Assembly (NCBI GenBank): GCA_035526885.1
Contig: DATLBM010000269.1
Coordinates: 1 to 35,787 of the forward strand
DNA: 35,787 nucleotides
Reading direction: 5' to 3'
From: Thermoanaerobaculia bacterium
GTDB lineage: Bacteria; Acidobacteriota; Thermoanaerobaculia; Gp7-AA8
A program made the translations under genes and the position numbers. Positions 5,254 to 31,399 of the stretch are shown one piece after another. The first letter of the stretch is position 1; every line of letters starts with the position of its first letter. The notes under the pieces were generated by a model that saw nothing but the letters and a program-made list of their open reading frames with translations, was not told the origin of the DNA and searched no databases.

Positions 5254-7775
5254 GCGAGCAGCTCCCGAAGCGATGCGGCCAGCGTTTGGACGGATGGCGG
5301 AGTGAGGAGATTGAAATGCGTCGCCTCGATGCGATGCACGTCCAGGCCCGGCGCGACGCCCGACCAGAGCGACGCGTTGCGCAGGTGATCGCTTTCACGG
5401 TCTTCCACGGTCCGCGTCGCCGCGAAGAGCGTTACGCGCGTGTTCGCGGGAGCGGGAACGTAGTGGCGCATGGTGCGGAAGTTCGCGCGAAGATTGCGGA
5501 GGAAGCGGCGCAGGTCGTGATAGCCGACGTCGTCCGCCGCGGGCATCAGGCGATAGAGGCGACAGAACTCCTGGACCGAGGAGAGACGTCGTTTCTCCTG
5601 CGGAATGTAGCGCCCCGTCAGCTCGATCAGCTCGCGCCACAGCGCGTGCTCGTGGGCCTCCTCGACCTGCGGCGAGTCGAGGTCATGGCGTTCCAGCACC
5701 TCGCCGAGGTCGACCACGGGGTTGCGATCCTCCGGGCCGTATGCGCGCGGGAACCGCGTGTCCAGCAGCGCCACGTGCGATGCCTCGTCGCCGAGCTGCT
5801 GCGCCATCTCGTACGCGATGAGGCCCCCGAACGAATAGCCGGCCAGAAGATACGGGCCGTGTGGATGCGCGGCGCGCAACGCGTCGATGTAGCGCGCGGC
5901 CATCTCCGGCGCGTGCTGCAGCGGCGCGTCGCTGCTGCGCGGGTCGGGACCTTTCAGTCCGACGACGGCGCGATCGGAGCCGAGAAGGCGCGCGAGCTCG
6001 ACGTAGCAGAGGATCGATCCGCCGGACGGATGGATGCAGACCAGCGGACGTCCGTTGCCGCGCTGGATCGTGACCAGCGGCGACGCATCGCGCGTGCGCG
6101 CGTGATGGCGGAGGAGGCGCGCAAGATGCTCGATCGTCGCGTCGGGCAGCAACGCCGAAGGCTCGAGCGCCACGCCGAATTCGGATTGCACGCGCGCGAG
6201 CAGGTCGACGGCCATGATGGAGTCGGCGCCGAGGGCGAAGAAGTCGTCCGTGACGCCGATTCCTTCGCGCTCGAGGAGCGTTTCCCAGATCCGCGCGAGC
6301 TGCAGCTCGACGGGATCGCGCGGTGTGACGAACGAGCGTTCCGGCGCCGGTTTGGCGACGCGAACGCGCGGCTCGCCGTCGATGCCGGTCTCCACGACCA
6401 CCGCCTGGCCGCGCTCGCGCTCGATCGCTTCGAGATCGACGAGCTCTCCGCCGATCCATGCGCGCCGATCCGTGCGGCCGCACAACTCGATGTTGCCGTC
6501 GTCGCGGACTCGGGCCAGGTCGCCCGTCTTCTCGCCGCGAATCACGAGCGCGCCGATCTCGCCCATCGCGCAGTCCTCGCCGTTCGCGGCGACGACGCGA
6601 ACGTCGACGCCGGTGAGCGGCCGTCCGATCGGTTGCGTCCCGGGCAGCGGCGGATCGGCGATGCGATACGCGCACGCGTCGAGGTACGTCGTGAACAGCG
6701 GCGCGTCGGACGGGAAGAAGTTGCGCCAGCGCGCGATGAGGCCGTCGGTGACCGGCTCGCCGGTGAAGACGACGGCGGAAACGCCGCTGAGTGGTTTCGG
6801 CCGCAGGGCGCGCGCGATGCGGCGGCGGGCTTCGTGCGCCGTGAGCGTGAGGCTGTTCGGCGGCGGCGTCATGGGCTCGAGGGCGGCGGACGTGGCGACG
6901 GGCTTCAGCCCGTCGCGATGTGGGTATTGCGACGGGCTGAAGCCCGTCGTCACGCTTGTCCCGATCAGCCGCTGCCATTCGTTGCGCAGCGCGCGGTCGT
7001 ACAGCCAGTTGCCGTCGAAGTGATTGCCCGCGACTTCGATCATCCGCTTCGGCTCGCGCGCGGCGTCGAACACGCGTCGCGCGAGCTGAATGGGCACGAG
7101 CCAGTCCTCGCGCGCGTGCACGACGATGACCGGACACCGCGCGTCCGCGACCGGTTTCGTCGAATCGAGCGGGATCGTGAGACGGCGGATCTTCGTGACC
7201 CACTTCGGCAGGTGGTGATCGCGCAGGTCGGTCATCGAGCTCGCGCATCCGTGAAACACGAGCGCGCGGCAGTCGACCTGCGTGGCCAGTCGCGCGGCGA
7301 TCGCGGCACCGAGCGAGCGGCCGTAGAGAATGATCGCGTCCGGCGCGATGCCTTTCGCGAGCAGCGCATCCCACGCCGCGCGCGCCGCCTCCTCGCATCC
7401 CTGCACCGTCGCCGTTCCCTCCGAAGTCCCGAAGCCGGGATAGTCGAACGCGAAAACGTTCGCGCCGAGGGACGAGACGTAGCGGATCGCTTCCAGCTCC
7501 TGGCTGACGTTCGCGGCACGGCCGGGGAACAGCAGCACCGTAACTTTCGCGTCGTCGTGCGGCACCCACCAGGCGCGGATCGAGTCGCGGCCCGCGCGGA
7601 GGCGGAGCTCGTCGAATGCCAGTCCCACGCGCGAAGGCGTGCCCCAGTCGCGGCGGCTTGGCCGGAGCACGAGGATGCGCTGGTTGAAGAGCGCGAGCGC
7701 GAAGAAGCGCGTGTTGCGGATCCAGGTTCGGTTCGAGCGCAGGAGCCGGCGCAGCGCGCGAAGGATGCGTCTCAC
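5250..7775 (-). CDS. single open frame joining an alpha/beta-hydrolase to a truncated adenylation-like region, a PCP and a thioesterase
   Basis: GTG 7775 overlaps the KS stop (GTGA). Hydrolase: GRSLG nucleophile, REDW, GNHFD. No in-frame stop crosses the palindromic repeat at 6890-6955. After the repeat come degenerate A5-A8-like motifs (TGDLARVRDDGNIELCGRTDRRAWIGGELVDLEAIE), PCP GADSIMAV and TE GYSFGG. An internal ATG at 6872 allows an alternative two-gene model. Confidence 0.7.
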   Translation of the reverse strand: MRRILRALRRLLRSNRTWIRNTRFFALALFNQRILVLRPSRRDWGTPSRVGLAFDELRLRAGRDSIRAWWVPHDDAKVTVLLFPGRAANVSQELEAIRYVSSLGANVFAFDYPGFGTSEGTATVQGCEEAARAAWDALLAKGIAPDAIILYGRSLGAAIAARLATQVDCRALVFHGCASSMTDLRDHHLPKWVTKIRRLTIPLDSTKPVADARCPVIVVHAREDWLVPIQLARRVFDAAREPKRMIEVAGNHFDGNWLYDRALRNEWQRLIGTSVTTGFSPSQYPHRDGLKPVATSAALEPMTPPPNSLTLTAHEARRRIARALRPKPLSGVSAVVFTGEPVTDGLIARWRNFFPSDAPLFTTYLDACAYRIADPPLPGTQPIGRPLTGVDVRVVAANGEDCAMGEIGALVIRGEKTGDLARVRDDGNIELCGRTDRRAWIGGELVDLEAIERERGQAVVVETGIDGEPRVRVAKPAPERSFVTPRDPVELQLARIWETLLEREGIGVTDDFFALGADSIMAVDLLARVQSEFGVALEPSALLPDATIEHLARLLRHHARTRDASPLVTIQRGNGRPLVCIHPSGGSILCYVELARLLGSDRAVVGLKGPDPRSSDAPLQHAPEMAARYIDALRAAHPHGPYLLAGYSFGGLIAYEMAQQLGDEASHVALLDTRFPRAYGPEDRNPVVDLGEVLERHDLDSPQVEEAHEHALWRELIELTGRYIPQEKRRLSSVQEFCRLYRLMPAADDVGYHDLRRFLRNLRANFRTMRHYVPAPANTRVTLFAATRTVEDRESDHLRNASLWSGVAPGLDVHRIEATHFNLLTPPSVQTLAASLRELLA
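6890..6955. repeat. palindromic GGGCTTCAGCCC-core element, copy 1 (REPIN/MITE-like), inside an ORF
   Basis: ACGTGGCGACGGGCTTCAGCCCGTCGC - 11-nt loop - GCGACGGGCTGAAGCCCGTCGTCACGC. Read in frame on the minus strand it gives TTGFSPSQYPHRDGLKPVATS. Confidence 0.85.
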
Positions 7776-10174
7776 GGTGCCGCCAGGACGATGGCGACGT
7801 TGCGCACCCCGCGGTCGCTGCGCCACACCAGCGCGTCGGGAATCTCGCCATCGCGAATGGCCAGCGCCGCGTGTGTGGCCGAGAACATGCCGGAGGCGGC
7901 GCCTGTGAATCCGATGGCATCGCATGCGCCTTCGATGCGGGCGTCATCGCCGACGACTTCGTGCGCGATGGAGGGCTCGGCGGCGTCGAGGAGATCGCCG
8001 AACACGTGACGGGGAGCGCGTCCGCTGGCACGAAGGGCAAGCCTGGCGGCATCGTGCAGCGACGCGAACGATTCGTGCGACGCTGCGATGCGCGCGTAGA
8101 TCCGCGCGCCGCGCTGCCGCGCGCGTTCTTCCGATTCCAGGATCCACACCACGGCGCCTTCGCCCGGCGCGACGGTCATGCCGTCGAGCACTTCCGCGGC
8201 GAGATGCTCAGGACCGAGGACCGAGTCGTATGCGCCGGCCATCACCACGTCCGTCTCACCGCGCTCGATCGCCCGCGCCGCGCGGACCAGTGCCTGCGCG
8301 CCGCCGCACGAGCCGCTGCTGATGTTGAGGTTGGGCCCGAGGACGCCGTGCTCGATGGCGATGCCGCACAGGCCGGCGTTCGGAAGACTCTTCACGATGA
8401 GCAGCGGATCGATGCGCGGGATGCCGCGCGTGGCGAACTTCGTCGGATCCCACTGGCCCGCGGCGTCGATCGACACTTCGAGCGCCGGCGCGAAGTTCGA
8501 CTGCGGCGAATCGAAGCTCACCGACGCGATGTAGAGGCCCATCCGCGCGAGCGTGTCCGCGTCGCCGTCGAGCCCCGCGTCACGCGTCGCTTCCCCTGCC
8601 GCGACGACGGCCATCGTGGCGGTCTTCTGCAGGAGTTTGCGAAGCATGCGATTGCGCACGGTCTGCGGCATCGACTCGTCGTACGCGGGCGCGCCGAACG
8701 GCGCGATGGTGCTGTTCGCGTCGCGGATCGTGATGCCGGACGCGCCTTCGCGATAGCGCGTCCAATGCTCGCGCGCGTTCGATGCGAGCGGGGAGACGAC
8801 GCCGATACCGGTGAGGACGGCTTTGTGAAACGTGGCGACGGGCTTCAGCCCGTCGCGATGTTGGATATCGCGACGGGCTGATGCCCGTGGCCACGTTTCT
8901 CCTTCGAATTTGCGGATGGCGATGGAGCCGTTCTGGCCGCCGAAGCCGAACGAGTTCGAGAGCGCCGTGCGGACGCGCATGCGCCGCGCTTCGACGGGCA
9001 CGAAATCGAGATCGCATTCGGGATCGCGTTTGCGCAGGTTGATCGTCGCGGGGACGACGTCGTCGCGCACGGTGAGGCACGTCAGCACCGTTTCCACGGC
9101 GCCCGCGGCGCAGATGAGATGTCCGAGGTGCGACTTGGTGGAGCTGATGGCGACGCGTTCGGCATGCGCGCCGAATGCGGACTTGATGGCGATCGTCTCG
9201 ATGCGATCGTTCTGCGGCGTGGCCGTACCGTGCGCGTTGATGGCGTCGACGTCGTGCGGCGCGATGCCCGCATCCTCGAGGCAGTTGCGCATCGCCGCCG
9301 CCGCCCCCCGCCCCTCGGGATGCACGTCCGTGAAGCGGTAGCCGTCGGACGACGATCCGTACCCGATCACTTCCGCGTAAATGCGCGCACCGCGTGCCAG
9401 CGCGTGCGGCAGCGATTCCAACACGACCATGCCCGCGCCTTCGCCGATGACGAAGCCGTTGCGGGTGAGATCGAACGGGCGCGAGCTCGTTTCCGGATCC
9501 GCGTGCGTGGAGAGCGCGCCGAGGAGCCAGAAGCCGGCCAGGCAGAACGCGGAGACCATGCTGTCCGCGGCGCCGGCGAGCATGACGTCGGCCAGGCCGG
9601 AGCGGATCATGTGAAAGGCCTCGCCGGTGGCCTGCGTGCCCGAGGTGCATGCGCCCTGGATCGTGAGACTGGGGCCGTCGAGCTGGAAGCGCTGGGAGAG
9701 AAAGGCGGAGATGGAGCTCAGGCGGTACTGCGTCGTGAGCTCGCGATGTTCGCGCAGCAGTTCGTAGAGACTCTCGACGCTCCAGCGCGCGGCGGGAGCG
9801 GCGACGTCCAGCGCGCGCCCGCGGATCTGCGTCTCGATGGCGGGAAAGCCTCCCGCGCCGACGCAGACGCCGATGCGTGCGCGATCCGCGCTGCCGTTCA
9901 TGCCGGAGTCGCTCCACGCTTTCGATGCCGCCCAGTTCGCGAAGGCCAGTGCGCGGTTCGCGCGCACGAGTCCGCGATCGTGATCGCTCGCGACGATGCG
10001 TTCGACGTCCACTTCGCTGGCGATGTTCACCGGGAAGGCGTGGCTGTCGTACTGCCGCAGGTGTCCGATGCCGCAACGTCCGTCGAGGATGGCGTTCCAG
10101 ACCGGCTCGACGTCGACACCGAGCGACGTTGCCAGGCCCAGACCCGTCACCACGACGCGCGCGCGGTCAGTCAT
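7772..10174 (-). CDS. fused beta-ketoacyl synthase (KS-alpha, FabF-like) and chain-length-factor-like KS-beta
   Basis: N-terminal domain has the full catalytic set: GACTSG, HGTATP, KSHLGH, NSFGFGGQNGS. C-terminal domain (KAVLTGIGVVSPLA...) keeps the KS fold signature but lacks the HGT and K..GH motifs. The two are joined in frame through the repeat at 8828-8898. Confidence 0.85.
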   Translation of the reverse strand: MTDRARVVVTGLGLATSLGVDVEPVWNAILDGRCGIGHLRQYDSHAFPVNIASEVDVERIVASDHDRGLVRANRALAFANWAASKAWSDSGMNGSADRARIGVCVGAGGFPAIETQIRGRALDVAAPAARWSVESLYELLREHRELTTQYRLSSISAFLSQRFQLDGPSLTIQGACTSGTQATGEAFHMIRSGLADVMLAGAADSMVSAFCLAGFWLLGALSTHADPETSSRPFDLTRNGFVIGEGAGMVVLESLPHALARGARIYAEVIGYGSSSDGYRFTDVHPEGRGAAAAMRNCLEDAGIAPHDVDAINAHGTATPQNDRIETIAIKSAFGAHAERVAISSTKSHLGHLICAAGAVETVLTCLTVRDDVVPATINLRKRDPECDLDFVPVEARRMRVRTALSNSFGFGGQNGSIAIRKFEGETWPRASARRDIQHRDGLKPVATFHKAVLTGIGVVSPLASNAREHWTRYREGASGITIRDANSTIAPFGAPAYDESMPQTVRNRMLRKLLQKTATMAVVAAGEATRDAGLDGDADTLARMGLYIASVSFDSPQSNFAPALEVSIDAAGQWDPTKFATRGIPRIDPLLIVKSLPNAGLCGIAIEHGVLGPNLNISSGSCGGAQALVRAARAIERGETDVVMAGAYDSVLGPEHLAAEVLDGMTVAPGEGAVVWILESEERARQRGARIYARIAASHESFASLHDAARLALRASGRAPRHVFGDLLDAAEPSIAHEVVGDDARIEGACDAIGFTGAASGMFSATHAALAIRDGEIPDALVWRSDRGVRNVAIVLAAP
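8828..8898. repeat. palindromic GGGCTTCAGCCC-core element, copy 2, inside an ORF
   Basis: AAACGTGGCGACGGGCTTCAGCCCGTCGC - loop - GCGACGGGCTGATGCCCGTGGCCACGTTT, 71 nt. Translated on the minus strand as ETWPRASARRDIQHRDGLKPVATF. Confidence 0.9.
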
Positions 10175-10754: not shown

Positions 10755-10769
10755 GATGTCCCTCTCTGT

Positions 10770-11522: not shown

Positions 11523-11534
11523 CGCGTGTCCTCC

Positions 11535-12287: not shown

Positions 12288-12775
12288 GCGCGGGCGGGGG
12301 GCTGCCATGGAGAGGTGAGACGGCGGTACTCCTCGCGGCAGAAGCTCTCCATGACGTTCCGGTCGCCGCCGCCCACCGCGCCGTTCGGATCGAAGAGGAG
12401 CATGAGGGTCATGTCCGCGGACTTGCGCCCGCCATTCGTGACCGTGGCCTTGCACAGCGCGGCTTCGTCGCGGAGTGAATCGATCCGCGTGCGGATCTCC
12501 AGGCGGCTCTTCGGAGCGACGAATTCGCGGAACTTGGCGCCCTCGATCTGTCCGAGAAAGGGAAAGACCCACAGGTCGCGATTGGCCACGAGCGTGGCCT
12601 GCACGAGAAGGCCGGAGAGCTGCGCGCCCATCTCGGTCAGCAGCACGCCGGGCGTGATGGGAAAGGTCGGGAAGTGATCGGCAAACAGCTCCTCGGAGAA
12701 GTCCGTGGACGCGTCCGCGGACGCAGACTCTCCGGGCACGAGCTCGCGAACTCTCTCCAGAAGGCGCCATCGCAT
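12284..12775 (-). CDS. FabZ/FabA-like hotdog-fold 3-hydroxyacyl-ACP dehydratase
   Basis: [22 protein letters not shown] matches the FabZ active-site region (DHFP..P.mPGVL). 163 aa; first gene of the operon. Confidence 0.8.
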
Positions 12776-12812
12776 GAGTAGGATTGGAAGACGCTCTTAC
12801 GATACATCAAGA

Positions 12813-14150
12813 ATGCCTTCCTTCGACACGATCATCGCCGGCGGCGGACTGGCCGGAATCACGACTGCGGTCGCGCTCGCGGACGCGGGGCAGCGCGTGG
12901 CTCTGCTCGAAGCCTCGCCGATTCTCGGTGGCCGCGCCTCGAGCACGATCGACGCGACGACGGGCGATGCGATCGCCATCGGCCCGCACGTGCTTTTTTC
13001 CGAATACGTGAACATGCTGAAGCTCCTGCGGCTCCTCGGCACGGACTCGAAGATCGTCTGGGACGACGAGCGCTTCACGACCGAGGTGAAGGGCACGCAC
13101 GAGATCGTGATGCGGATCTCTTCATGGCTGCCGGCGCCTTTTCACTTCGTGCCCAGTCTCTTTCGGGACAGGACGCTGCGCGCCGCGGACTGGCTGTCCA
13201 ACGCGGGCATCACGCTGTACGCGCTGTCGCTGCGCGAGGCGGATCTGCTGCGGCTCGATGGCATGCGCGGCATCGACCTCGTGCGCCGCTTTCGCGTGCG
13301 GGAGGCCTACGTCGAACGCTTCTGGCGCTACCTCGCGCTGGCGATCGTGAACGTGCCGCTCGAGGAGTGCTCGGCGGCCGCGCTGCTGCGCGCGTACCGG
13401 CGGCTGATCGGCAAACGCGGGTATCGCATCGGCTATCCCGGCGGAGGCCTCGGCGATCTCTTCGCGCCGGCGGCGGAGCGGTTTCTGCGCGAGCGCGGCT
13501 CGGTCGTGCTGACGAACGCACGCGTCGTATCTCTGGATGGGCCATTTCGATTGCAGACCGGCGAGACGTTCGAAGGAAAGTCGTACGTCATCGCGCTGCC
13601 TCCGCCGAAGCTGGAGGCCGTGCCGTACGCGAGCGTGTATCTCTGGTTCGACCGGAAGCTCACACAACGGCGTTTCTGGTCGCGCGTGTATGCGGAGGGC
13701 GATCTCAATCTCGACTTCTACGACTTTTCGAACATCGGAAGCCGCGGCGGCACGTCGCTGATCGGGAGCAACGTCATCGGCGCGGAGCGCATCGGATCGC
13801 TTTCCGATGAGGAGATCGTGAAGCGCACGCTGGAGGAGATCGCGGAGTATCTCCCGCACGCGCGCGATGCGCGCGTCGTGCACTCGGTGGTGCATCGCAT
13901 TCCGATGGCCATTCACGCGGCGGTGCCGGGATCGGAGTCGCGTCGTGCCCGCGAGCTCGAGCCGCGTCCCGGCGTCGTGCTGGCCGGCGACTGGACGCAG
14001 ACGGGACTGCCGCCATCGATGGAGAGCGCGTGCTTTTCCGGATTTCGCGCGGCGGAGATCGTCCTCGGCCGCGACGGCCTGGCGGTGCGGCATCGGGAGC
14101 TGGATTGGGTCGCTTCGCTCCTCGGCGCGCTGACGCGCCGGACGGGCTGA
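12813..14150 (+). CDS. FAD-dependent oxidoreductase of the phytoene-desaturase / amine-oxidase (HpnE-like) family
   Basis: N-terminal dinucleotide fold DTIIAGGGLAGITTAVALADAGQRVALLEASPILGGRA; C-terminal LAGDWT motif. The last codons and the TGA stop lie inside the repeat at 14141-14203. Confidence 0.8.
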   Translation: MPSFDTIIAGGGLAGITTAVALADAGQRVALLEASPILGGRASSTIDATTGDAIAIGPHVLFSEYVNMLKLLRLLGTDSKIVWDDERFTTEVKGTHEIVMRISSWLPAPFHFVPSLFRDRTLRAADWLSNAGITLYALSLREADLLRLDGMRGIDLVRRFRVREAYVERFWRYLALAIVNVPLEECSAAALLRAYRRLIGKRGYRIGYPGGGLGDLFAPAAERFLRERGSVVLTNARVVSLDGPFRLQTGETFEGKSYVIALPPPKLEAVPYASVYLWFDRKLTQRRFWSRVYAEGDLNLDFYDFSNIGSRGGTSLIGSNVIGAERIGSLSDEEIVKRTLEEIAEYLPHARDARVVHSVVHRIPMAIHAAVPGSESRRARELEPRPGVVLAGDWTQTGLPPSMESACFSGFRAAEIVLGRDGLAVRHRELDWVASLLGALTRRTG

Positions 14151-14203
14151 AGCCCATCCTACGTTCGGCACGGTGCTCAACGTAGGATGGGCTTCAGCCC
14201 GTC
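14141..14203. repeat. palindromic GGGCTGAAGCCC-core element, copy 3 (variant with arms in inverted order)
   Basis: GACGGGCTGAAGCCCATCCTACGTT - 13-nt loop - AACGTAGGATGGGCTTCAGCCCGTC. It overlaps the stop codon of the upstream gene (14148-14150). Confidence 0.85.
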
Positions 14204-14227
14204 CCGCCGCTGCGCTAAGCTGCGCGC

Positions 14228-15205
14228 GTGATCGAGGCGCCGCGGGTCCAGTCGGTGCGATTCATCGGATCCGCGCATGCCGGGAGCGGCGCGGGATGGA
14301 CGCTGCACGGGCAGGACGGCGGACAGTCCATCGCCCTCGGCGGCGAAACGTTGTTCGTCTTCTCCGATACGCTGCTGTCGCGCAGTGGTCAGCAGCTCTT
14401 CCTTGCGAACTGCGCGGCGTTGTCGGGCGAACCGACGCTGGACGGCGCAATGTCCAACCTTCGCTACCTCGAAGACGAGCACGGACTGCCGCGCGAGATC
14501 CTCGGCGCGAACCCGCTCGAGCGCATGGCCGGGTTTCGTTTCTGGCCGCAGCACGGAATCGCCGAGGGTGATGACGTCCTGCTCTTCTACCTCGGCATTC
14601 ACCAATACGATCAGCGCAGCGCGTGGGGCTTTCGGATGTCCGGCTCCGGGATGGCGCGCCTCGATCCGCGCACAGGCGCGAGCGAGCGCATCACGCGGGC
14701 GGGCGTGTGGTGCCTGTGGCCCGGCGACGGCGACGTGCGCATCGGGACGCAGGTGCTCCGCGCGGATGCTTTCGTGTACGTCTTCGGCAGCCGCGCGTCG
14801 CACGCGATCGTCGCGCGCGTGCCGTCATCATCGGTCGGCGATCCCGATGCGTACCGGTTTCTCGCGGCGGATGAACGGTGGTCGGAAAGCGTGAGCGATG
14901 CGGTCTCGATCGCCAAAGCGGCGCCGGAGTTCTCCGTGTCGTTCAACGAACATCTCGGCGCGTACCTGATGGTCTACGCGGACGGATTCGCGCGCGAGCT
15001 CTACGTGCGCACGGCGCCCGCTGTTTGCGGTCCGTACGGACCGGCGGTGGCGGTGGGACGTCTGCCGCATCGCGACTCGGCGGAGATGGTGGCGCTGGCG
15101 TTCGAGCATCCGCGGTTCGCGAAGAACGGCGGCAAGACGGTGGTCGTCTCCTACTGCCAGCCGCACTTTACGCAGAACTCTCTCGTGGCAGTCACGTTCG
15201 CGTGA
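14228..15205 (+). CDS. hypothetical protein, possibly DUF4185-like (beta-propeller, glycoside-hydrolase-like)
   Basis: High GC3 and GTG start. LGGETLFVFSDTLL resembles the conserved FGDT-type motif of DUF4185. This assignment is tentative. Confidence 0.55.
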   Translation: MIEAPRVQSVRFIGSAHAGSGAGWTLHGQDGGQSIALGGETLFVFSDTLLSRSGQQLFLANCAALSGEPTLDGAMSNLRYLEDEHGLPREILGANPLERMAGFRFWPQHGIAEGDDVLLFYLGIHQYDQRSAWGFRMSGSGMARLDPRTGASERITRAGVWCLWPGDGDVRIGTQVLRADAFVYVFGSRASHAIVARVPSSSVGDPDAYRFLAADERWSESVSDAVSIAKAAPEFSVSFNEHLGAYLMVYADGFARELYVRTAPAVCGPYGPAVAVGRLPHRDSAEMVALAFEHPRFAKNGGKTVVVSYCQPHFTQNSLVAVTFA

Positions 15206-15283
15206 AGGCAAACGTGGCGACGGGCTTCAGCCCGTCGCAATATCGATATCGCGACGGGCTGAAGCCCGTCTCCACGTTTCTTC
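15206..15283. mobile_element. palindromic GGGCTTCAGCCC-core element, copy 4, flanked by a 14-bp direct duplication
   Basis: AAACGTGGCGACGGGCTTCAGCCCGTCGC-AATATCGATAT-GCGACGGGCTGAAGCCCGTCTCCACGTTT. It is flanked by identical TCACGTTCGCGTGA at 15192-15205 and 15284-15297. Confidence 0.6.
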
Positions 15284-16291
15284 TCACGTTCGCGTGATCT
15301 CGCGAATGAGCTCGTCCCATCGCGCGGCGATGTTGGACCAGGCATACCGCGGATCGGTCGCGCGCGCAAACGCGGCGTCGGCCAGACGGCCACGTTCGTC
15401 GCGATCGCGGTAGAGGCGCTCCAGCGCCGCGGCGATGCCTTCCACGGTGACCGTGCGTCCCGCCTTCGTGTAGCGCTCCATCGTGCTCTGCGTTGCGGGA
15501 TCGAGCAGCAACGCCGCGCCTTCCCAGAGCTCGGCGCACGCAGTGTGGTTCGGCACGATCTGCGCGGCACGCGTGGCGCCGTGCTCGAAGGCGATCAGGC
15601 CCCAGCCTTCCTTCTCCGACGTGTTGATGCCCACGTGGCAGGAGTTGTAGATCGCGTTCAGGCGCTCGTCGGAAACGAACGGATGCCGCTCGCCCTTTTC
15701 CGTGAAGACGATGCGGTCGCGGATGCCGAAGCGATCCGCCAGCGGGACCTCGCCCGGATGCGGCGTGCGCGTGCCCATGTGCAGCACGAGCTTCACGTTC
15801 TCCGGCTTGCCGCGCGCGAACAGGGCGAAGCCTTCGACGGTGAGGTCGATGCGTTTGAACGGCTGATTGCGATTGGCGTTGAGGACGAAAAAGGCGTCGT
15901 CGTCGCGCGTGCCGGCGGGGTGGAAGGCATTCGTGTCGACGCCGTGCGGAATGACAGCGTGTGCGTTGGCGATCGCGCGGCCGAAATCCGTGAATGCCAC
16001 CACGCGGTCCGCCTTGGCCAGCTCCGCCGCGATCTCCGGCGTCACCGACTCTTCGCCGTCGGCGGCAGCGTAGAAGATGGTCGGGTACGTGCCGCACAAC
16101 CGCGGTGCGAGTTGCGCGCAGCGCCACGGCTCGTCCAGTACGAGCACGAGCTCCGGCGCGATGGCGGCGATGTCCGCGTCCGATGCATCGATGGGGAGGC
16201 GCGCCACGCGGCGGGGAAGATGCGGGGCGATGCTGTCGAGCACGCGGGCGAATCCCGTGGGAATGCCCGCGTGCCCGAGGAAGAGGATCAC
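15284..16291 (-). CDS. GT-B fold glycosyltransferase (GT4-like)
   Basis: EKEGWGLIAFEHGATRAAQIV (E-x7-E region) and VILFLGHAGIPTGFARVL at the N-terminus. GTG 16291 overlaps the stop of the 304-aa gene (GTGA). The upstream part of the 481-aa ORF is a shadow. Confidence 0.8.
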   Translation of the reverse strand: MILFLGHAGIPTGFARVLDSIAPHLPRRVARLPIDASDADIAAIAPELVLVLDEPWRCAQLAPRLCGTYPTIFYAAADGEESVTPEIAAELAKADRVVAFTDFGRAIANAHAVIPHGVDTNAFHPAGTRDDDAFFVLNANRNQPFKRIDLTVEGFALFARGKPENVKLVLHMGTRTPHPGEVPLADRFGIRDRIVFTEKGERHPFVSDERLNAIYNSCHVGINTSEKEGWGLIAFEHGATRAAQIVPNHTACAELWEGAALLLDPATQSTMERYTKAGRTVTVEGIAAALERLYRDRDERGRLADAAFARATDPRYAWSNIAARWDELIREITRT

Positions 16292-17202: not shown

Positions 17203-17211
17203 GAAACCCTC

Positions 17212-19854: not shown

Positions 19855-19869
19855 GTTGGTCTCCTTGCG

Positions 19870-22313: not shown

Positions 22314-23278
22314 GGCCGCGCGTCATCGTCGCTCAGAATTTCGAATGCTGCGCGATGGCGTGTGACCAGCGTTCGCGCCGGTTCGCCTTTGCGAACGATC
22401 GAAAATTGTGCGCTGGCGAGCTTCGTGTTCAGACAGATTTTTTCGCCGCCCGGCGGATTTTGATACCGCAGTCCGACGAACGCGCTCATCGGCGCCTCGA
22501 TCCGGCCCGATACGCGGACGTCCCGCGTTCGCGCTTCGATCGTCCAGGCGAAGGAGCGAACCTCGGCCGCCGTGCGCAGCGCCCGAAACAGTCCGTTGAG
22601 CGCGATCTCACGGCCCTGATCGCGCAACACCAGAAAGGTCAGCCGCGGGCTCCACACCGGACCGATCCTGATCTGTGCGGTCGCACATTCGAGAAACGAC
22701 TCGGGAGCGTTGTCAAAGCCGGCCACCTGCCCCCACGCGTATCGATCGGTGTGCTGGGTGCCCCAGTTGTGATTCTGGCTGCCTCTCCACTCCTGCACCG
22801 GCACGCTCACTCCGTCGATCACGAGGCTGCCCGTGTATCGAGCGTCTGGTGCGCCAACCAAAACCTTCGCCTTGGGAAAGCGTTTCGAATAGAGCTCCGC
22901 CGGCAGCAGGAGCAAGGGAGGCTCGGCGCTTTCATAGCGCAAGGCCCACTCGAACGTGTGCGACGGCGATGCAGCGCGACCGTGAAGCTCGCCGTCCCGC
23001 AGAACGGCGTCCCGGATGCGAACATCGAGCCGCAACGGCGAGAAATGACATTCGGCGATCGGCAGCGCTTCCTGGACAGCCACGATCTCGCCGCGCTCAC
23101 CATCGAAATAGATCGCCCAGAGCTCGCCGCGGGCCAGGTCCGGACGTTGCCGTGGCGAGAAGACCGTGTAGCGAATCCAGAATGCCAGGGGACGCGAAGG
23201 ATGGTTGGCGCGCTGGAAGTAGCTCTCGTAAAAGCCGGCAGCATCTTCGGGTCGAAACCTCGACGCATTCCAGTCCAC
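22274..23278 (-). CDS. hypothetical protein, tocopherol-cyclase-like / CrtC-like fold suspected
   Basis: Only the C-terminal 334 aa of the 1176-aa ORF look coding; GTG at 23278. FYESYFQRANHP..RPLAFWIRYTVF and WRGSQNHNWG...RYAWGQV resemble the FEGWYFR and EKNWG motifs of tocopherol cyclases. It overlaps the 3' end of the convergent synthase gene by 40 bp. Confidence 0.5.
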   Translation of the reverse strand: MDWNASRFRPEDAAGFYESYFQRANHPSRPLAFWIRYTVFSPRQRPDLARGELWAIYFDGERGEIVAVQEALPIAECHFSPLRLDVRIRDAVLRDGELHGRAASPSHTFEWALRYESAEPPLLLLPAELYSKRFPKAKVLVGAPDARYTGSLVIDGVSVPVQEWRGSQNHNWGTQHTDRYAWGQVAGFDNAPESFLECATAQIRIGPVWSPRLTFLVLRDQGREIALNGLFRALRTAAEVRSFAWTIEARTRDVRVSGRIEAPMSAFVGLRYQNPPGGEKICLNTKLASAQFSIVRKGEPARTLVTRHRAAFEILSDDDARPHASGDRNPRSMM

Positions 23279-23289
23279 GTTGGGTTGAC

Positions 23290-25014
23290 CTACGTCAGGC
23301 GCGCGAGCATCGCCAGCTCGCCGGACTCGTCGCCGCCCAGCGATCGGAAAAGCGTCGTCCACTTCTGGCGCAGCGCGCCCTGCAGCGGCGGCATGCGCAT
23401 GCGCGCGGGATTCGGGAATCCCGCCTCGCGCAGCGCGCGCGTGAGCGAGCGCTCGTTGAAGAACTGGTAATGCGCGACGGGATTCACCGCGTCCCACTCC
23501 TTGCCGAAGATCCGGAACTGCCACGACTCGCTGTCCGGCACGGCCAGGTACAGAACGCCGCCGGGGTTGAGCGCCTGCGCGATCTGGCGCAGCGCGGCGT
23601 TCGGATCGCCGAGGTGCTCGAGGACGTGCGTCATGACGATGGCGTCGAACGAGCCCCAGGGCAGGAGGTCGCTGCCGAGATGCGCCACGGCCAGATGCGA
23701 GCCGAACATCGCGTCCAGCTCCGCCGTGCGCGCGCGCGAGGTCTCCACGCCGTACACCTGGAAGCCGTGCGCGCGCGCGGTGCGCAGCAGGTACCCGGAG
23801 CCGTAGCCGATGTCGAGCAGCCGCGGTCCGGGCGCGTGCTTGCGCAGCAGGCGGCACAGATAGTCCGCATAGATTTTCTGCGTCTGCAGAAATCCATCCT
23901 CGGACGCATCGAGCTCCTCGCCGAGGCGCTTCTGCACTTCCGGCTTCACGCGCGGGCTCACGTAGATGTGCGCGCACGTCGCGCAGCGGTGGTAGTCGAA
24001 GCGGTGCTTGCGGAAGATGGTGGCGTCGTTGCGCGCGCCGCATACGGGGCAGTCGACGGTCTCGAATGCGTCGTCGCCGAGGCGATCGCGAAAGTCGTTC
24101 GAGTTGGAGTGCCAGAAGAGATGCAGCGCCTCGGCCGGATCGGGAAGCGGTGCGGGAGTGAAGAGGCTTTCGATCTCCGCCTTCGTTTCGTCGAGCTTGG
24201 CCAGCGCGATGGCGCGGGCGGAGTCGTCGAGCGCGTCCGCCATCTCCTGCAGCGCGGCGACGTCTTTGCCGATGACGGAGCGGACGTCGTCGCCGAAGAT
24301 CGCGGCGATGTTCGGCCGCGACTGCTCGGCATCGCGCTCGCGGTCCTGCAGGTCGTTCACCTTCTGCGCGAGCGCGTAGTAGCGGCGCAGGAACGGATAG
24401 AGCGGCGACTGCAATTCGGGATCGAGAGCGGCGTAGAGGATGCGCCAGTACTCGACGTTCTTCAGCTCCACGAGCCGCTCGTAAAACTCGGGCGACCAGT
24501 CCTCGCGCGGGCTGCGCTCCATGAGGATGCCGGCCAGGAGAGCGCGTGCGGCATCGATGATCGCGGCCGTCTGCGCGCCGGCGCGCGCGTGCTGCAAGCC
24601 CTCGAAGCAGAGCAGGAGGGCCATCACGACGGTGAGCGATTCCGCCTCCGGCCCGCCGCCCTCGCGCGCCAGCGTGGCCAGCAGCGTCTCGCGGCGGCCG
24701 CGGTAGAGGAAGTGGCGATCGAGGTAATCGTCGAGCAGGCGGCCGGCGAAGTAGATCAACACGCTGGCCGAGAGATCGGCGCGAAAGCGCTCCTCGTCGG
24801 GCTGGATGACGACGGCGAGCTGCGGCAGGTCCCAGGTAGTCCAGCTCAGCCAGTGCAGGTAGTCCGCGGTCTTGTCCGCGAGGGCTCGCGTGGAAGGGTT
24901 GCCGCCGGACACGAGGTCGATGTTGCGGCGCATGCGCTCGATGGCGTCGACGACCGCGCCCGTAACGATGGCGCGATAGCGCTCCTCGATGGTCTCGGCG
25001 GCGGTGACGGTCAT
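23290..25014 (-). CDS. two-domain protein: N-terminal all-helical isoprenoid-synthase-like domain fused to a zinc-ribbon plus class I SAM methyltransferase
   Basis: ATG 25014 overlaps the upstream stop (ATGA). N-terminal RLLDDYLD (DDxxD) and VNDLQDRERD (NSE/DTE-like). Then CPVCG...CATC, LLDIGYGSGYL (motif I) and LNPGGVLYLAVPD. Confidence 0.7.
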   Translation of the reverse strand: MTVTAAETIEERYRAIVTGAVVDAIERMRRNIDLVSGGNPSTRALADKTADYLHWLSWTTWDLPQLAVVIQPDEERFRADLSASVLIYFAGRLLDDYLDRHFLYRGRRETLLATLAREGGGPEAESLTVVMALLLCFEGLQHARAGAQTAAIIDAARALLAGILMERSPREDWSPEFYERLVELKNVEYWRILYAALDPELQSPLYPFLRRYYALAQKVNDLQDRERDAEQSRPNIAAIFGDDVRSVIGKDVAALQEMADALDDSARAIALAKLDETKAEIESLFTPAPLPDPAEALHLFWHSNSNDFRDRLGDDAFETVDCPVCGARNDATIFRKHRFDYHRCATCAHIYVSPRVKPEVQKRLGEELDASEDGFLQTQKIYADYLCRLLRKHAPGPRLLDIGYGSGYLLRTARAHGFQVYGVETSRARTAELDAMFGSHLAVAHLGSDLLPWGSFDAIVMTHVLEHLGDPNAALRQIAQALNPGGVLYLAVPDSESWQFRIFGKEWDAVNPVAHYQFFNERSLTRALREAGFPNPARMRMPPLQGALRQKWTTLFRSLGGDESGELAMLARLT

Positions 25015-25817
25015 GCGGCGTCTTCTCCGTACGGCAGCGCGGCCATGCGCGCGACGTTGCCGATGCGGATCGCCAGCGCCGCGGCAGGCGAGGCGATGCG
25101 GTGATTCGCGTAGGGATCGGACGGGGGCGCCGGATCGTTGATGAGGTCCAGACGCGGTTCCTCGATGGAGCAGTCGAGCAGCGCCGCCGTGCGCAGCGCA
25201 TCGGCGAGCGTGTTCTTCGGCGCCTCCGGGATATCCGCGATGCCGACGAGGCCCGTCGAGGCGATGGCGTGTGCCTCTTCGATCGACAACGCGCCTTGGA
25301 GTTGATCGAGGAACGGCGCCGCATCCGCGCCGATGAGCGTGCAGTAGCGCGCCGCGTGCGCGGCCTCGAGCTTCGTCGTGACGCGCAGCCGTTGCAGCGC
25401 CGCCAGTGGACGCCGGTCCGCGCGCGGGCGCCGCCACTTCGTGTTGGGTAGCATGGCGATGGCGGCGCAGGCCGTGGTGGCGGCGTCGGCGCCGCGCGTG
25501 CCGAGGCGGCCGTGGAGCTGCCAGGTGCCATCGGCGGATTGCTCGGAGGCGAGGTAGAGCCGCAGTCCCCATCGCAGCGACACGACGTCGACGAAAAACG
25601 ATTGCGGGACGAGATCGCGCACGCGTCCCACGAACCGCGGCGAGCGCGGATCGACGAACGCCAGCGCGTCGTACGCGAGCGCGGAGAGCAGCGGCGCCGG
25701 CGCGTAATACGTCTCGCCGTCGTCGCCGCAGCGCACGGACGACAGCTCGCCCATGGGCAGCTGCATCGTGCGCAGCGAGCGCGCCGCGGCCGCGAGATAC
25801 GCACCGGCGCGCGTCAC
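25011..25817 (-). CDS. hypothetical protein; one terpenoid-cyclase/prenyltransferase-like repeat motif
   Basis: GTG 25817 overlaps the upstream stop (GTGA). GC3 is high. SADGTWQL resembles the Q..DG.W repeat of alpha/alpha-toroid cyclases. Function is uncertain. Confidence 0.5.
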   Translation of the reverse strand: MTRAGAYLAAAARSLRTMQLPMGELSSVRCGDDGETYYAPAPLLSALAYDALAFVDPRSPRFVGRVRDLVPQSFFVDVVSLRWGLRLYLASEQSADGTWQLHGRLGTRGADAATTACAAIAMLPNTKWRRPRADRRPLAALQRLRVTTKLEAAHAARYCTLIGADAAPFLDQLQGALSIEEAHAIASTGLVGIADIPEAPKNTLADALRTAALLDCSIEEPRLDLINDPAPPSDPYANHRIASPAAALAIRIGNVARMAALPYGEDAA

Positions 25818-27340
25818 ACGGCCTCCCGCGCGAGCTTCCAGAGATTGGAGCGCGCGCAGTCGGCGAAGCGCTGGCGCAGATGCGCGCGCAGCTCGTCCTC
25901 GCCGGCGACGCCGGGCCGCGGCGCGCGCGGCATCAGTCGCCCGTAGCGTTCGTCGCGCGCGAGCGTGGCGAAGGCGCGCGGCCACTCCGGCAGCGCGGCC
26001 ACCACCGCGTTGTGCGCGTCGACGCAGCGCTGCCACCGCTCGAGCAACTCATCGAGGGACGCGTCGAAGTCGATCGCCCCCGCCGCCTCGGCCAGCGCCT
26101 TCGCCTCCGGCGTTCGCTGCGGCCCGCGAATGACCAGCCGCATGGCCGCGCCGATCTCGCGCGGATCGTCTTCCGAACGAAAGTAGAAGCTCGCCGGCGA
26201 GGGCACGCGCCAGGTCTCCAGCCCCTCGCGCGCAACGACGAGCGTGGTCGTGCCGAAGCGCGGGGCCGCATGCGCGAGGTAGGAGTCGGCGGTGACCGCG
26301 ACGTCCGCATCCGCGACGATGTCCAGCATCTCGCCGACCGTCGCCGCGCGTCCGTTCGCGGCGAGCTGCGCGCGCAGTCCCGCGTTCCGCAGCGCATCGC
26401 GAAGCGAGATCGCGAATCCGCGCGTAGACGCGTTCGGTCCCGTGTCGAGCACGATGCGCTCGCGGGTGAGCATCGACGTCAGGATGTTGCGCCACAGCTT
26501 CTCGGAAGGCTCTTCCTTCGAAGTGAACGGGCTGACCACTACCGTCGCGTCTTCGTTTCGTCGTGCACGCTTCTCGAATCGCGGCACGTCCGCGCCGAGC
26601 CAGCGGCACATGGCCGCCACGACGTCGTAAAAGTTCTCGGCGCTCTGCGGCATCTGGTGAAAACGCCGCGCGACGTTGTCGAGAATGGACAGCGACCGCG
26701 TTCCCACGGAGATCTCGAAGAAGCGCTTCACCTCGGGCTCGTGCGCGATGGCCGCGACCAGTCCGGGCGGCTCGAAGTCGACGTAGACGATGGCGTCGTC
26801 GGCGCCGGAGCGCATGCGCGTCAGCAGCTCGGCCATGTCGCGGTATCGCGTGACGCGCTGGTCGTGCTCGGATGCGATGCGGCTCCACAGTCCGTCGTAC
26901 GCCGTCAGCACGTCGACCGTCGCATGCGGCGCGAGCGACTGCAGCGCGCGCGGAATGGGCGAGGCCAGGATCTCGTCGCCGATGCCGATCGCGGGTCCGT
27001 AGATCACGGCGATGTTCTGCATCGACTGCCAGTCGTCCGGCGCGCGCGACGTCATCACGAGATCGCGAGGCATGCGATAGGCGAGGCGCGGCTGCAGCGT
27101 CGTCTGCAGCGCGGGCGCGACGCGGAAGAGATTCGAAGGAGTCAATGCGCGCAACGGCTCGCGGATGGCGTCGTCCTCGAAGAGCGGCGCCAGCGACTGC
27201 AGCGCGCCGATGCGGCTGCCGCGGTAATGCGTGTTCGCCGCGCTCACGGGCCGGCGCCCGAGGAAAAAGAGATACCGCGAGAGCAGCGTGGCGGGCAGCA
27301 CCAGCTCCGGATCGAACGGCGCGGGCGTGCGCGGCGTCAT
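25814..27340 (-). CDS. GT-B fold protein resembling glycosyltransferase family 9 (heptosyltransferase-like)
   Basis: IAVIYGPAIGIGDEILASPIPRAL near the N-terminus, VVVSPFTSKEEPSEKLW, and DADVAVTADSYLAHAAPRFGTTTLVV (DS..H.A motif). The ATG overlaps the upstream stop (ATGA). Confidence 0.6.
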   Translation of the reverse strand: MTPRTPAPFDPELVLPATLLSRYLFFLGRRPVSAANTHYRGSRIGALQSLAPLFEDDAIREPLRALTPSNLFRVAPALQTTLQPRLAYRMPRDLVMTSRAPDDWQSMQNIAVIYGPAIGIGDEILASPIPRALQSLAPHATVDVLTAYDGLWSRIASEHDQRVTRYRDMAELLTRMRSGADDAIVYVDFEPPGLVAAIAHEPEVKRFFEISVGTRSLSILDNVARRFHQMPQSAENFYDVVAAMCRWLGADVPRFEKRARRNEDATVVVSPFTSKEEPSEKLWRNILTSMLTRERIVLDTGPNASTRGFAISLRDALRNAGLRAQLAANGRAATVGEMLDIVADADVAVTADSYLAHAAPRFGTTTLVVAREGLETWRVPSPASFYFRSEDDPREIGAAMRLVIRGPQRTPEAKALAEAAGAIDFDASLDELLERWQRCVDAHNAVVAALPEWPRAFATLARDERYGRLMPRAPRPGVAGEDELRAHLRQRFADCARSNLWKLAREAV

Positions 27341-27960
27341 GCGTGGATCCCGGTCATGCCGCCGAGGAGCCAGCGGCCGTCGTGCTGCTGCCGGAACCAG
27401 AGCATGCGGCCGAACAGCTCGGTGAGCGTGCGCATGTGCGGCTTGCTGAAGAAGTCGACCTGCACGGTGACGCGAATCAACACGCCCATCGGATGGAAAA
27501 CGACGTCGGGAATCTCGGTGAGTGAGACGCGGAACTGCTCGCCGCGCCAGCCGTCGATGGAGCCTTCCAGCGCGCTGCGAAGGCGGTCGCGATCGACCTC
27601 GACGTCATCCTCGAACGCGTGATAGTCCGGCGCGATGCACTCCATCACCTCGGCGATGTCGCCGCGCTCGATGGCCTGGATGAACCGATAGAGGCAGTCC
27701 ACCACTTCCTCGGCGGTCTCCGCATCCCACGGCTCGGGTGCGGCTGACGTAGGACGGGCTTCAGCCCGTCCAGCGGGTGGACCGGCTGAAGCCTGTCCTA
27801 CGTCGAAGTAGCGATCCCAGGCCTGGCGCGCGACGTCCGGCGTGGCCTGCATCTCCTCGCCCGGCGCCCACGACACGAGCAGGTCGGTCGCGCTGAGCAG
27901 CCACGGGTGCAGATCGAATTCGTCCGCGGCGGGAGCCTGCCACTCGAAGTCGTCGGTCAT
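27337..27960 (-). CDS. NTF2/SnoaL-like small protein with an N-terminal extension and an in-frame repeat insertion
   Basis: C-terminal VVDCLYRFIQAIERGDIAEVMECIAPDYH... is typical of the SnoaL/NTF2 fold. N-terminal MTDDFEW... has high GC3. The repeat at 27746-27804 is read as VGQASAGPPAGRAEARPTS. Confidence 0.55.
   Translation of the reverse strand: MTDDFEWQAPAADEFDLHPWLLSATDLLVSWAPGEEMQATPDVARQAWDRYFDVGQASAGPPAGRAEARPTSAAPEPWDAETAEEVVDCLYRFIQAIERGDIAEVMECIAPDYHAFEDDVEVDRDRLRSALEGSIDGWRGEQFRVSLTEIPDVVFHPMGVLIRVTVQVDFFSKPHMRTLTELFGRMLWFRQQHDGRWLLGGMTGIHA
27746..27804. repeat. palindromic GGGCTTCAGCCC-core element, copy 5 (ACGTAGG subfamily), inside an ORF
   Basis: GACGTAGGACGGGCTTCAGCCCGTCC-AGCGGGT-GGACCGGCTGAAGCCTGTCCTACGTC. 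Confidence 0.85.
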
Positions 27961-28948
27961 GGGAGGAGGACGCGGCGAGTGTAGCATCACGGACCTGCGC
28001 ATCCTCGTGCTCACCGCCGACTTTCCTCCCGCGCACTGGTCGGGGATCGGCATCGCCGTCTTTCATCAGACCAACGCCCTGCGCGAGCGGGGCGTGGAGG
28101 TGGAAGTGCTGACGCGCGAGCGCCTCGAAGGCGTGCATTTTCCGCTCGAGGTCCGCCGTGGCGACATCGTGCATCTCCACTCCCTCGCGCTGGCCGAGCT
28201 GGCGCTCGAGCTCACGCGCCGCTTCGAGCTGCCGCTCGTCTACACCGCGCATTCGCTGATCGAGCGCGAGCTCGGCGAGCGTGCGGCGTCATGGGCTGCG
28301 TTGCAGCAACGCGTGTTCGAGGCGGCGGACGCGGTGATCTTCGTCAGTCGCGCGGAGCGCGAGGCCGCGCCGAACGTCCAGCGCGCGCACGTGGTGCACA
28401 ACGGTGTCAAACGTAGGGCGGACTTCAGCCCGCCCAGCGACGGGCTGAAGCCCGCCCTGCGTTTTTGTCCGGCCGGCCCGATCGTCTTCGCCGGCCGCTT
28501 CACGCGCAACAAAGGACTGGACATCGTTCTCGATCTGGCCGAATCCATCCCTCGCGAATTCGTGCTCGCGGGCGGGCACGGCGATCCCGATCTCGAGCGC
28601 CGCGCCGCATCGCGCTCGATGGGATGGCTGCCGCACGACGAGCTGCACGCGCTCTTCGCGCGCGCCGCGCTCGTGCTCATGCCCAGCCGCTACGAGCCGT
28701 TCGGGATGGTCGCGCTGGAAGCGATGCGCGCGGGCGCGCCGCTCCTGGCCTCGGAGGCGCTGCGCGAAGTGGCCATGCCCGAGTCGATCGTGCGCGGCGA
28801 CTGGCGCGATGCGGTGACGCAATTGCTCGCGCAACCGGAAACGCTGCGCGAGTTGCACGAACGCGGTCCGCGGCACGTGGCCGAGCATTTCGACGCGAGC
28901 GTGCTGGCGGAAAAGCTGTTGGCGATTCTGGAGAGCGTCGCGCGATGA
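27959..28948 (+). CDS. GT4-family glycosyltransferase with a repeat-encoded interdomain linker
   Basis: LRILVLTADFPPAHWSGIGIAVFHQTNALRERGVEVEVLT at the N-terminus; VVHNGV...FAGRFTRNKG; PSRYEPFGMVALEAMRAGAPLL (E-x7-E). Confidence 0.8.
   Translation: MGGGRGECSITDLRILVLTADFPPAHWSGIGIAVFHQTNALRERGVEVEVLTRERLEGVHFPLEVRRGDIVHLHSLALAELALELTRRFELPLVYTAHSLIERELGERAASWAALQQRVFEAADAVIFVSRAEREAAPNVQRAHVVHNGVKRRADFSPPSDGLKPALRFCPAGPIVFAGRFTRNKGLDIVLDLAESIPREFVLAGGHGDPDLERRAASRSMGWLPHDELHALFARAALVLMPSRYEPFGMVALEAMRAGAPLLASEALREVAMPESIVRGDWRDAVTQLLAQPETLRELHERGPRHVAEHFDASVLAEKLLAILESVAR
28409..28464. repeat. palindromic GGCTTCAGCC-core element, copy 6 (ACGTAGG subfamily), inside an ORF
   Basis: AAACGTAGGGCGGACTTCAGCCCGCC-CAGC-GACGGGCTGAAGCCCGCCCTGCGTTT. 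Read on the plus strand as KRRADFSPPSDGLKPALRF. Confidence 0.85.
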
Positions 28949-31397: not shown

Positions 31398-31399
31398 TC

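Follow-up and report, generated by a model that had tools for sequence, protein, structure and literature searches.

GTAG-REPs, a class of repetitive extragenic palindromic sequences (REPs), carry a terminal GTAG or GTGG beside a stem of 5-13 bp, and occur mostly as head-head (HH) and in part as tail-tail (TT) dimers, whose termini can act as stop codons (Di Nocera, De Gregorio & Rocco 2013; PMC3733652). Dimers located inside open reading frames (ORFs) encode 20-30 aa, argued to form flexible linkers, and are most abundant in Opitutus terrae and Rickettsia conorii; the head of the O. terrae GTAG-20 elements is mostly GTGG, and genes for REP-associated tyrosine transposases (RAYTs) are flanked by the repeats (PMC3733652). 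In the REPIN-RAYT systems of Bertels & Rainey (2011), an inverted REP pair forms the long-hairpin replicative unit, and a single RAYT gene sits in syntenic position, flanked by its own REPs; described REPINs are overwhelmingly extragenic (PMC3116915). The bacterial interspersed mosaic elements (BIMEs) of Escherichia coli are also inverted REP pairs, and a Y1/HUH transposase, TnpA-REP (4er8), recognises the REP hairpin and its GTAG head. BIMEs are intergenic, and they carry integration host factor (IHF) and gyrase motifs. Here we describe six palindromic doublets (c1 to c6) in a window of 35.8 kb, which is one whole contig of a metagenome-assembled genome (MAG) from the Thermoanaerobaculia.

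We put at roughly 85% the probability that the six doublets belong to a REP/REPIN family native to Thermoanaerobaculia (Acidobacteriota), that they are inserted and mostly translated, and that a RAYT presumably mobilised them. Direct observation covers the anatomy of the elements, their presence or absence at orthologous sites, the continuity of the reading frames, purifying selection on the flanks and the linkage of RAYT and REP in relatives. The kind of event is already known, since intragenic GTAG-REPs and Rickettsia palindromic elements (RPEs) have been described (PMC3733652); what is new is a family member in a new lineage and an unusually high local density of translated copies. The terminal tetranucleotide beside the stem, the dimer types, the stop-supplying termini, the in-ORF dimers and the flanked RAYT genes are all shared with GTAG-REPs. 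The differences lie in the stem, here GACGGGCT-TC-AGCCCGTC, in the dense copies in coding sequence, in one 14-nt target duplication, and in the host, as PMC3733652 mentions Acidobacteria only for transposases flanked by terminal inverted repeats (TIRYTs). In the literature that we searched, no REP family was described for Thermoanaerobaculia, and no link between REPs and this class was found. The inverted pair forming one hairpin and, in related MAGs, the syntenic RAYT gene with its own REPs are those of the REPIN-RAYT systems, whereas the window copies are, by prediction, largely translated. With the RPEs (Ogata et al. 2000, cited in PMC3733652), the elements share the character of palindromic selfish DNA lying in frame in functional host genes, to which it adds surface or linker peptides; the intragenic RPE-4 and RPE-6 of R. 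conorii, however, are of a CGTC-tagged and not a GTAG-tagged class (PMC3733652). RPEs appear to have no sequence relationship to the window elements, and the likeness is one of in-frame insertion behaviour only. They are longer (about 100-150 bp), A+T-rich and not known to be linked to a RAYT; the elements found here are G+C-rich and span 56-78 nt.

The core GGGCTTCAGCCC, allowing at most one mismatch, matched the window 11 times, against 0.17 expected from dinucleotide-preserving shuffles, none of which reached 11. An inverted-repeat scan recovered all six doublets among the eight longest palindromes of the window, with arms of 24-35 nt that are 91-94% complementary. Both results bear out an initial annotation, which had placed six copies at these positions and described inverted arms of about 25 nt. 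Copies c4 and c1 are 86% identical over 73 nt, and 11-12 REP units are present in these 35.8 kb of the source genome. As single-stranded DNA (ssDNA), all six doublets fold as one long hairpin each, with energies between -27 and -43 kcal/mol and z-scores between -8.5 and -14 relative to shuffles; c1 has -38.8 kcal/mol and z -12, and c2 has z -14. A repeat comparison of the window revealed no second family of comparable strength beside the REP doublets. Irregular spacing (1.1-12.5 kb) and inverted units ruled out a CRISPR or tandem array, and a megablast search of PLSDB with 11 kb of the window returned only trivial matches of 36-49 nt.

Each unit, of about 28 nt, consists of (A)AAC, a GTAG or GTGG head, and its own hairpin with a stem of 8-9 bp and a 2-nt TC loop, as in GTGG-CGACGGGCT-TC-AGCCCGTCG or GTAG-GACGGGCT-TC-AGCCCGTC-C. 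Ten window units have a GTAG or GTGG head preceded by (A)AC, and among all loci examined 49 units carry GTAG and 44 GTGG. Two subtypes correspond to the two arm subfamilies first noticed: GTGG-CGAC (AAACGTGGCGAC...) in c1, c2 and c4, and GTAGG (ACGTAGG...) in c3, c5 and c6. Heads point outward in every window copy but c3, whose reversed arm order had also been recognised and which is the sole one with heads facing inward; over all loci examined, 25 doublets are heads-out, 2 heads-in and 2 tandem. The window thus has the short palindromic stem-loop unit (20-40 nt) with a conserved GTAG/GTRG at one end that characterises REPs, and in all six copies two inverted REPs yield one long hairpin, as in REPINs. 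[quoted passage not shown] Nor is the location inside genes as exceptional as it had appeared for normally intergenic elements, intragenic REPs being documented (PMC3733652).

The family extends beyond the window. When the 17-mer core ACGGGCTTCAGCCCGTC was scanned over one genome per species, about 20 of the 119 loci listed (L004-L122) were true REPs. The other listed matches were mostly gyrA or parC genes of many phyla, since GAC GGG CTG AAG CCC GT(C), the DGLKPV codons of the GyrA/ParC motif RDGLKPVHRR, has the 17-mer as its reverse complement; gyrA and parC of high-GC organisms therefore carry a perfect 8-bp hairpin, and the same identity accounts for the recurrent DGLKPV peptide that had been flagged in the window. 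Among the matches listed, true doublets (...AACGTAGGACGGGCTTCAGCCCGTCC...) were mainly in Thermoanaerobaculia MAGs (SMAG_U12094, U1735, U5216, U4539 and La1_metabat2.060), and further true REP matches in Ca. Gilichinskyi gelida and two Planctomycetota MAGs. REP doublets occur in at least 5 other Thermoanaerobaculia MAGs, and several contigs per related MAG carry the unit (at least 7 loci in SMAG_U12094, for example). Sixteen (16) JGI metagenome contigs carried the GTGG-CGAC subtype, often at their ends. Since mixed GTGG-CGAC/GTAGG doublets were found (L137:848-895 and L144:6584-6636), the two subtypes occur together in one genome and can pair up as REPIN-like hybrids. Read-through is not confined to the window: 7 of 27 REP sites at other loci passed a filter for read-through and coding signal. 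According to Pfam, one doublet lies exactly between the HATPase_c (343-452) and receiver (485-593) domains of a hybrid kinase (L097), and REP units lie inside two YfhO-family membrane proteins (L054). One of the seven, at L107, was discarded, on composition, as a wrong-frame ORF. Acidobacteriaceae (Terriglobia) MAGs have another dispersed repeat that contains the same hairpin, as TTGAAGGGGACGGGCTTCAGCCCGTCCGT, about 20 nt, GGCTTTAGCC and then GAGGGA, with no GTAG head (L010, L014, L027, L029, L047, L050, L053, L055, L069, L105, L110, L112 and L113).

Evidence of insertion comes from collinear loci of other assemblies, L001/L125, L002/L124 and L003, at about 80% nucleotide identity, and L123, whose ketosynthase (KS) is 88% identical in amino acids. 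All six element sites are coding or overlapping-coding in the orthologues. A search for the REP core in the orthologous loci found none, except for a remnant at the c2 site of L123. At about 80-88% identity the c1, c3, c4, c5 and c6 sites are empty, and L001, L002, L124 and L125 are empty at all comparable sites. Because the orthologous loci lack them, the elements are insertions, as the initial annotation had argued against evolved coding sequence; for c2, L123 holds a remnant only and the other orthologues examined hold nothing.

A transposase of the expected type is linked to the same REPs in relatives. Using as tblastn query an E. coli RayT sequence, we found a single ORF, L109:263-706, between two REP doublets. 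Its score on the NCBIfam equivalog NF047646, 'REP-associated tyrosine transposase', is 89.4 bits, above the cut-off of 80; it also matches Pfam Y1_Tnp and contains an HVH (HUH) motif and a YVRQNPV tyrosine motif. Among solved structures it is closest to E. coli TnpA-REP, 4er8, with a weak match (E = 4e-4). Homologues are present in several Thermoanaerobaculia MAGs, those of L126-L128 having been found by similarity to the L109 ORF. At all four loci (L109, L126, L127 and L128) REP units of the ACGTAGGGCGGGCTTCAGCCCGCCC type stand on either side of the gene, paired as doublets but for a single unit upstream in L128, and in L109 and L126 the GTAG head supplies the TAG stop codon of the RAYT. The order MsrAB-RAYT-cyclase is shared by L127 (4815-5580) and L128 (4890-5535), and in L109 and L126 the gene lies beside an AcrB-type transporter gene. 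As far as gene order tells, this is consistent with a vertically inherited, single-copy RAYT, which is presumably present in the source genome as well. GTGG-subtype metagenome contigs were also searched for a RAYT, and none was found in them, these contigs being too short.

The elements lie in a tightly packed biosynthetic cluster in which, from third-position GC and Pfam, genes abut or overlap and almost no intergenic DNA is left (Table 1). It encodes a hydrolase/A-remnant/peptidyl carrier protein (PCP)/thioesterase (TE), a KS fused to a KS-like half, an acyl carrier protein, two ketoreductases, an amine oxidase, a DUF4185 protein, glycosyltransferases, a polyprenyl synthase, a methyltransferase, an AMP-ligase and a carbamoyltransferase.

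Table 1. Elements, flanking repeats and host genes in the window, with the limits given by the inverted-repeat scan.
Feature	Coordinates	Strand	Scan coordinates	Arrangement, subtype	Description	Basis
c1	6888..6957		6891-6954	heads-out, GTGG	minus-strand translation SVTTGFSPSQYPHRDGLKPVATS, aa 324-346 of ORF 5250-7925	
c2	8828..8898		8827-8899	heads-out, GTGG	minus-strand translation ETWPRASARRDIQHRDGLKPVATF, aa 426-449 of the 800-aa KS/KS-like fusion	
c3	14139..14205		14137-14207	heads-in (tail-tail), GTAGG	supplies R-T-G and TGA of the amine-oxidase gene	
c4	15210..15279		15192-15297 (REP core 15210-15279)	heads-out, GTGG	between two convergent genes; whole inserted block 15206-15283 (78 nt)	
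Left 14-nt direct repeat TCACGTTCGCGTGA	15192..15205				carries the DUF4185 stop codon	
Right 14-nt direct repeat TCACGTTCGCGTGA	15284..15297				carries the stop (TCA on plus strand) of the convergent glycosyltransferase-like gene	
c5	27746..27804		27746-27804	heads-out, GTAGG	minus-strand translation DVGQASAGPPAGRAEARPTS	
c6	28409..28464		28409-28464	heads-out, GTAGG(G)	plus-strand translation KRRADFSPPSDGLKPALRF	
c1 host ORF	5250..7925	-			alpha/beta-hydrolase + A-domain remnant + PCP + thioesterase	Pfam, ortholog alignment
c2 host gene	7772..10174	-			ketosynthase fused to second KS-like half, 800 aa	Pfam
Amine-oxidase/FAD oxidoreductase gene	12705..14150	+			ends inside c3	Pfam
DUF4185 gene	14228..15205	+			ends immediately before c4	Pfam
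c5 host gene	27337..27960	-			207-aa protein, function unknown	
c6 host gene	28007..28948	+			313-aa family-4 glycosyltransferase (GT4), GT-B fold	

No stop interrupts four copies (c1, c2, c5 and c6) in the high-GC3 frame (GC3, third-position GC) that both flanks share, and they are read through. They had indeed been described as open inside ORFs, and the coding signal is continuous across them. The same annotation had pointed to A/T-rich third positions in the repeats; this applies to c2 and c5 (GC3 of 0.62 and 0.37, against 0.85-0.88 in the flanks) and not to c1 (0.86) or c6 (0.83). The palindrome is fairly permissive to translation, with 19 of the 36 element-frames open in the window copies. 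The recurrent peptide strings seen at first reading are real and are repeated at other loci (RASAR, DGLKPV, RAEARPT, TGFSPS), which is explained by their being the three frames of a single palindrome. Predicted element-spanning peptides include ...HRDGLKPVATF... and ...RRADFSPPSDGLKPALRF....

Copy c1 lies where the hydrolase gene meets the A-like/PCP/TE gene. L123 and L124 encode the hydrolase (258 aa) and the A-like/PCP/TE protein (837 and 683 aa) in separate genes that overlap, and L125 has a natural fusion of the two. The window lacks the hydrolase stop and roughly the first 130-285 codons of the gene downstream; the two ORFs are joined in frame, and the REPIN at the junction keeps the single frame open. 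The true start of the fused ORF is probably near 7730, past the KS stop.

The other three in-frame copies lie in linkers. For the KS hosting c2, NCBI has an identical protein, annotated from a MAG of the Thermoanaerobaculia; this KS has 800 aa against 788-791 aa in the orthologues (net about +36 nt), and the insert follows the last strand of the KS domain, a point at which many homologues, which are stand-alone KS, end. At the same codon, L123 has AACGTGGCGACGGGCTTCAGCC joined to ACG, i.e. the left arm and the last three bases of the right arm. Compared with the c2 of the window, this is an internal deletion that removes 42 nt and keeps the frame. In c5, 21 aa stand in place of a variable linker of 13-14 aa found in orthologues of 82-83% identity (net +24 nt, +8 aa). 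The segment encoded by c6 is absent from 17 of 17 aligned GT4 homologues, which have a short proline-rich linker instead, and from the DNA of L001 and L002; here too the element replaces the linker, with a net gain of 33 nt.

The genes carrying the insertions look intact. Nei-Gojobori dN/dS values against orthologues, computed upstream and downstream of each insert, were 0.19 and 0.24 for c1, 0.12 and 0.16 for c2, 0.04 and 0.30 for c5, and 0.19 and 0.18 for c6, so that, judged from these alignments, the flanking coding sequence appears to be under purifying selection (0.04-0.30). In an AlphaFold model of the GT4 protein (mean pLDDT 90), the sole internal stretch of low confidence, at about residues 140-149, is within the REP-encoded residues 135-153 and falls between two Rossmann-like domains. 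The KS model (mean pLDDT 71.8) has pLDDT below 50 at residues 427-448, between two thiolase-fold halves; it is weaker evidence, because other low-confidence stretches occur in the same model. On these models, the inserts are probably disordered linkers.

At c3, the third REP frame gives ...R-T-G-TGA, and the element provides, as initially reported, the last codons and the TGA of the amine-oxidase gene. This truncates the C-terminal tail, which is longer and variable in orthologues, and the ancestral TAA persists at 14216-14218, immediately ahead of the GTG at which the next gene starts. The corresponding 3' end of the amine-oxidase gene in L124 (~5975-6010) has a perfect hairpin of its own in the C-terminal coding tail, CCTCTCCCCGC-TTCG-CGGGGAGAGG, and L123 has G+C-rich hairpins at this position too. 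The c3 site seems to attract or to need a hairpin.

At c4, the empty site is a 14-nt overlap of two convergent genes, present as a single copy in L124 and L125 (TCACGTTCGCATGA and TCACGTTTGCATGA, 1-2 bases off the 14-mer of the window). In the window, the 78-nt block parts two perfect TCACGTTCGCGTGA copies, and as the 14-mer is present on both sides of the block, both genes keep their native ends. Such a flank repeat was obtained once in 2000 random controls.

How these insertions arose may be explained as follows. A single-copy RAYT of the IS200-like HUH/Y1 type would mobilise REP doublets in trans as single-stranded hairpin DNA, by analogy with what is established for IS200/IS605 and TnpA-REP; inverted heads-out doublets could be extruded as one long hairpin. 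Insertions would have been able to land only in coding sequence, because the cluster has almost no intergenic DNA. Selection would then have kept the tolerated copies: in frame in variable inter-domain linkers (c2, c5 and c6), at a gene junction, two ORFs now being joined by the element (c1), in a dispensable C-terminal tail where one REP frame supplies a TGA (c3), and in an overlap of convergent genes whose two ends were restored by duplication (c4). The element would be read as short linker peptides (...TGFSPS..., ...RASAR..., ...DGLKPV..., ...RAEARP...).

Several points weigh against a RAYT-mobilised, translated REP family. The transposase suggested at the outset was found next to the same REP in four related MAGs, and the 35.8-kb window, when searched, contained no RAYT. 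No insertion is a clean cut-and-paste, c1 accompanying a large deletion and c2, c5 and c6 replacing ancestral linker sequence; the events were therefore either imprecise or later trimmed in frame. The 14-nt target duplication at c4 is unexpected for transposition of the IS200/IS605 type. Copy c2 is close to consensus (2 changes in 64 nt), although the remnant in L123, whose KS gene differs from that of the window by a dS of ~0.4, suggests an old insertion; homogenisation, selection, or repeated insertion at an AAACG site are possible reasons. Lastly, expression (translation) of the inserts is something that we infer.

Of the other explanations, the one that best survives holds that the intragenic hairpins were retained for a function, as RNA structures at which translation pauses between domains, as RNase processing or attenuation sites adjusting expression along the operon, or as DNA sites for gyrase or IHF, rather than as selfish DNA that is simply tolerated. 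Elements placed exactly at domain boundaries would fit this, as would c4, between convergent genes in the classical REP location (PMC3733652), and both c2 and the L123 remnant are nearer to consensus than neutral decay at dS ~0.4 predicts. The orthologues, however, function without the elements at 76-88% identity, and survivorship alone accounts for the boundary bias, because the positions of the inserts are those least harmful for any insertion. Simple scans for intrinsic terminators (a G+C-rich hairpin followed by a T-run) and for promoters flagged none of the six copies; a search of Rfam matched no family, and six near-identical copies give no basis for covariation. We thus regard a retained function as improbable.

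The target duplication is also the main attraction of IS-derived MITEs, with terminal inverted repeats, a DDE transposase and target-site duplication. It is matched by L062:1349-1472, from a Thermoanaerobaculia MAG, where a composite REP doublet is bracketed by a perfect 12-nt direct repeat, GGACCGAGGTTC, and an overall length of 56-78 nt with inverted ends would also suit a MITE. Flanking direct repeats were nevertheless seen at these 2 of 21 doublets only, the other 19 having none above background, and a general target-site-duplication model was rejected on this count. To our knowledge, target duplication is not a feature of ssDNA transposition of the IS200/IS605 (Y1) type. Every arm forms a hairpin of its own headed by GTAG/GTGG, the REP signature; units also occur singly, heads-in and in mixed-subfamily doublets; the element flanks RAYT genes and not a DDE transposase, and no parent IS was found. 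An origin as MITEs is hence very unlikely.

An assembly or binning artefact, in which collapsed or mis-joined repeats yield false fused ORFs, is hardly credible: the window is a MAG contig and many JGI metagenome contigs break at the REP repeat, but the six copies differ in sequence and loop, three independent assemblies have the genes of the window in collinear order across every element, the reading frame and the homology carry on through both flanks, L123, another assembly, holds a remnant at the c2 site, and an identical GT4, including the c6 peptide, recurs in an independent Logan assembly of SRR8554898.

A native, inserted and mostly translated REP/REPIN family would extend the REP/REPIN-RAYT association to an uncultured class of Acidobacteriota. 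It would offer a compact example of selection filtering selfish palindromes in a cluster without spare DNA, in which the surviving copies mark dispensable linkers, tails and junctions of the encoded proteins. For annotation, the elements break metagenome assemblies and lead to gene calls that are fused or truncated; the 800-aa KS as annotated by NCBI includes the REP peptide, and elements could be taken for new domains or motifs. A small clue to how REPINs integrate is offered by the 14-nt duplication at c4. On a more speculative note, to which we give little credence, the family might be a recurrent generator of linkers and gene fusions, with a palindrome selected to be open in most frames, a non-canonical integration duplicating 12-14 nt (c4 and L062), and copies kept near consensus by homogenisation or selection (c2 and L123). 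If this were true, the RAYT-REPIN system would actively remodel multidomain enzymes, as in the hydrolase fused to PCP-TE at c1.

Two further features of the window were observed. Between the polyprenyl synthase and methyltransferase genes, an ORF of 318 aa (22331-23284, minus strand) has a protein-like composition and no Pfam match, and ~980 bp around it are absent from the collinear L001, L002 and L003. Between convergent genes, at 31248-31388, a perfect 36-nt inverted repeat (GAGCGCCTCCGGCGGGCCGGCACGGCCGGCAGCGCT) has a 69-nt spacer; no further copy was present in the 144 loci examined. The interval 31216-31407 is only ~42 nt long in the orthologous L002, and the palindrome looks like a second, unrelated inserted element.

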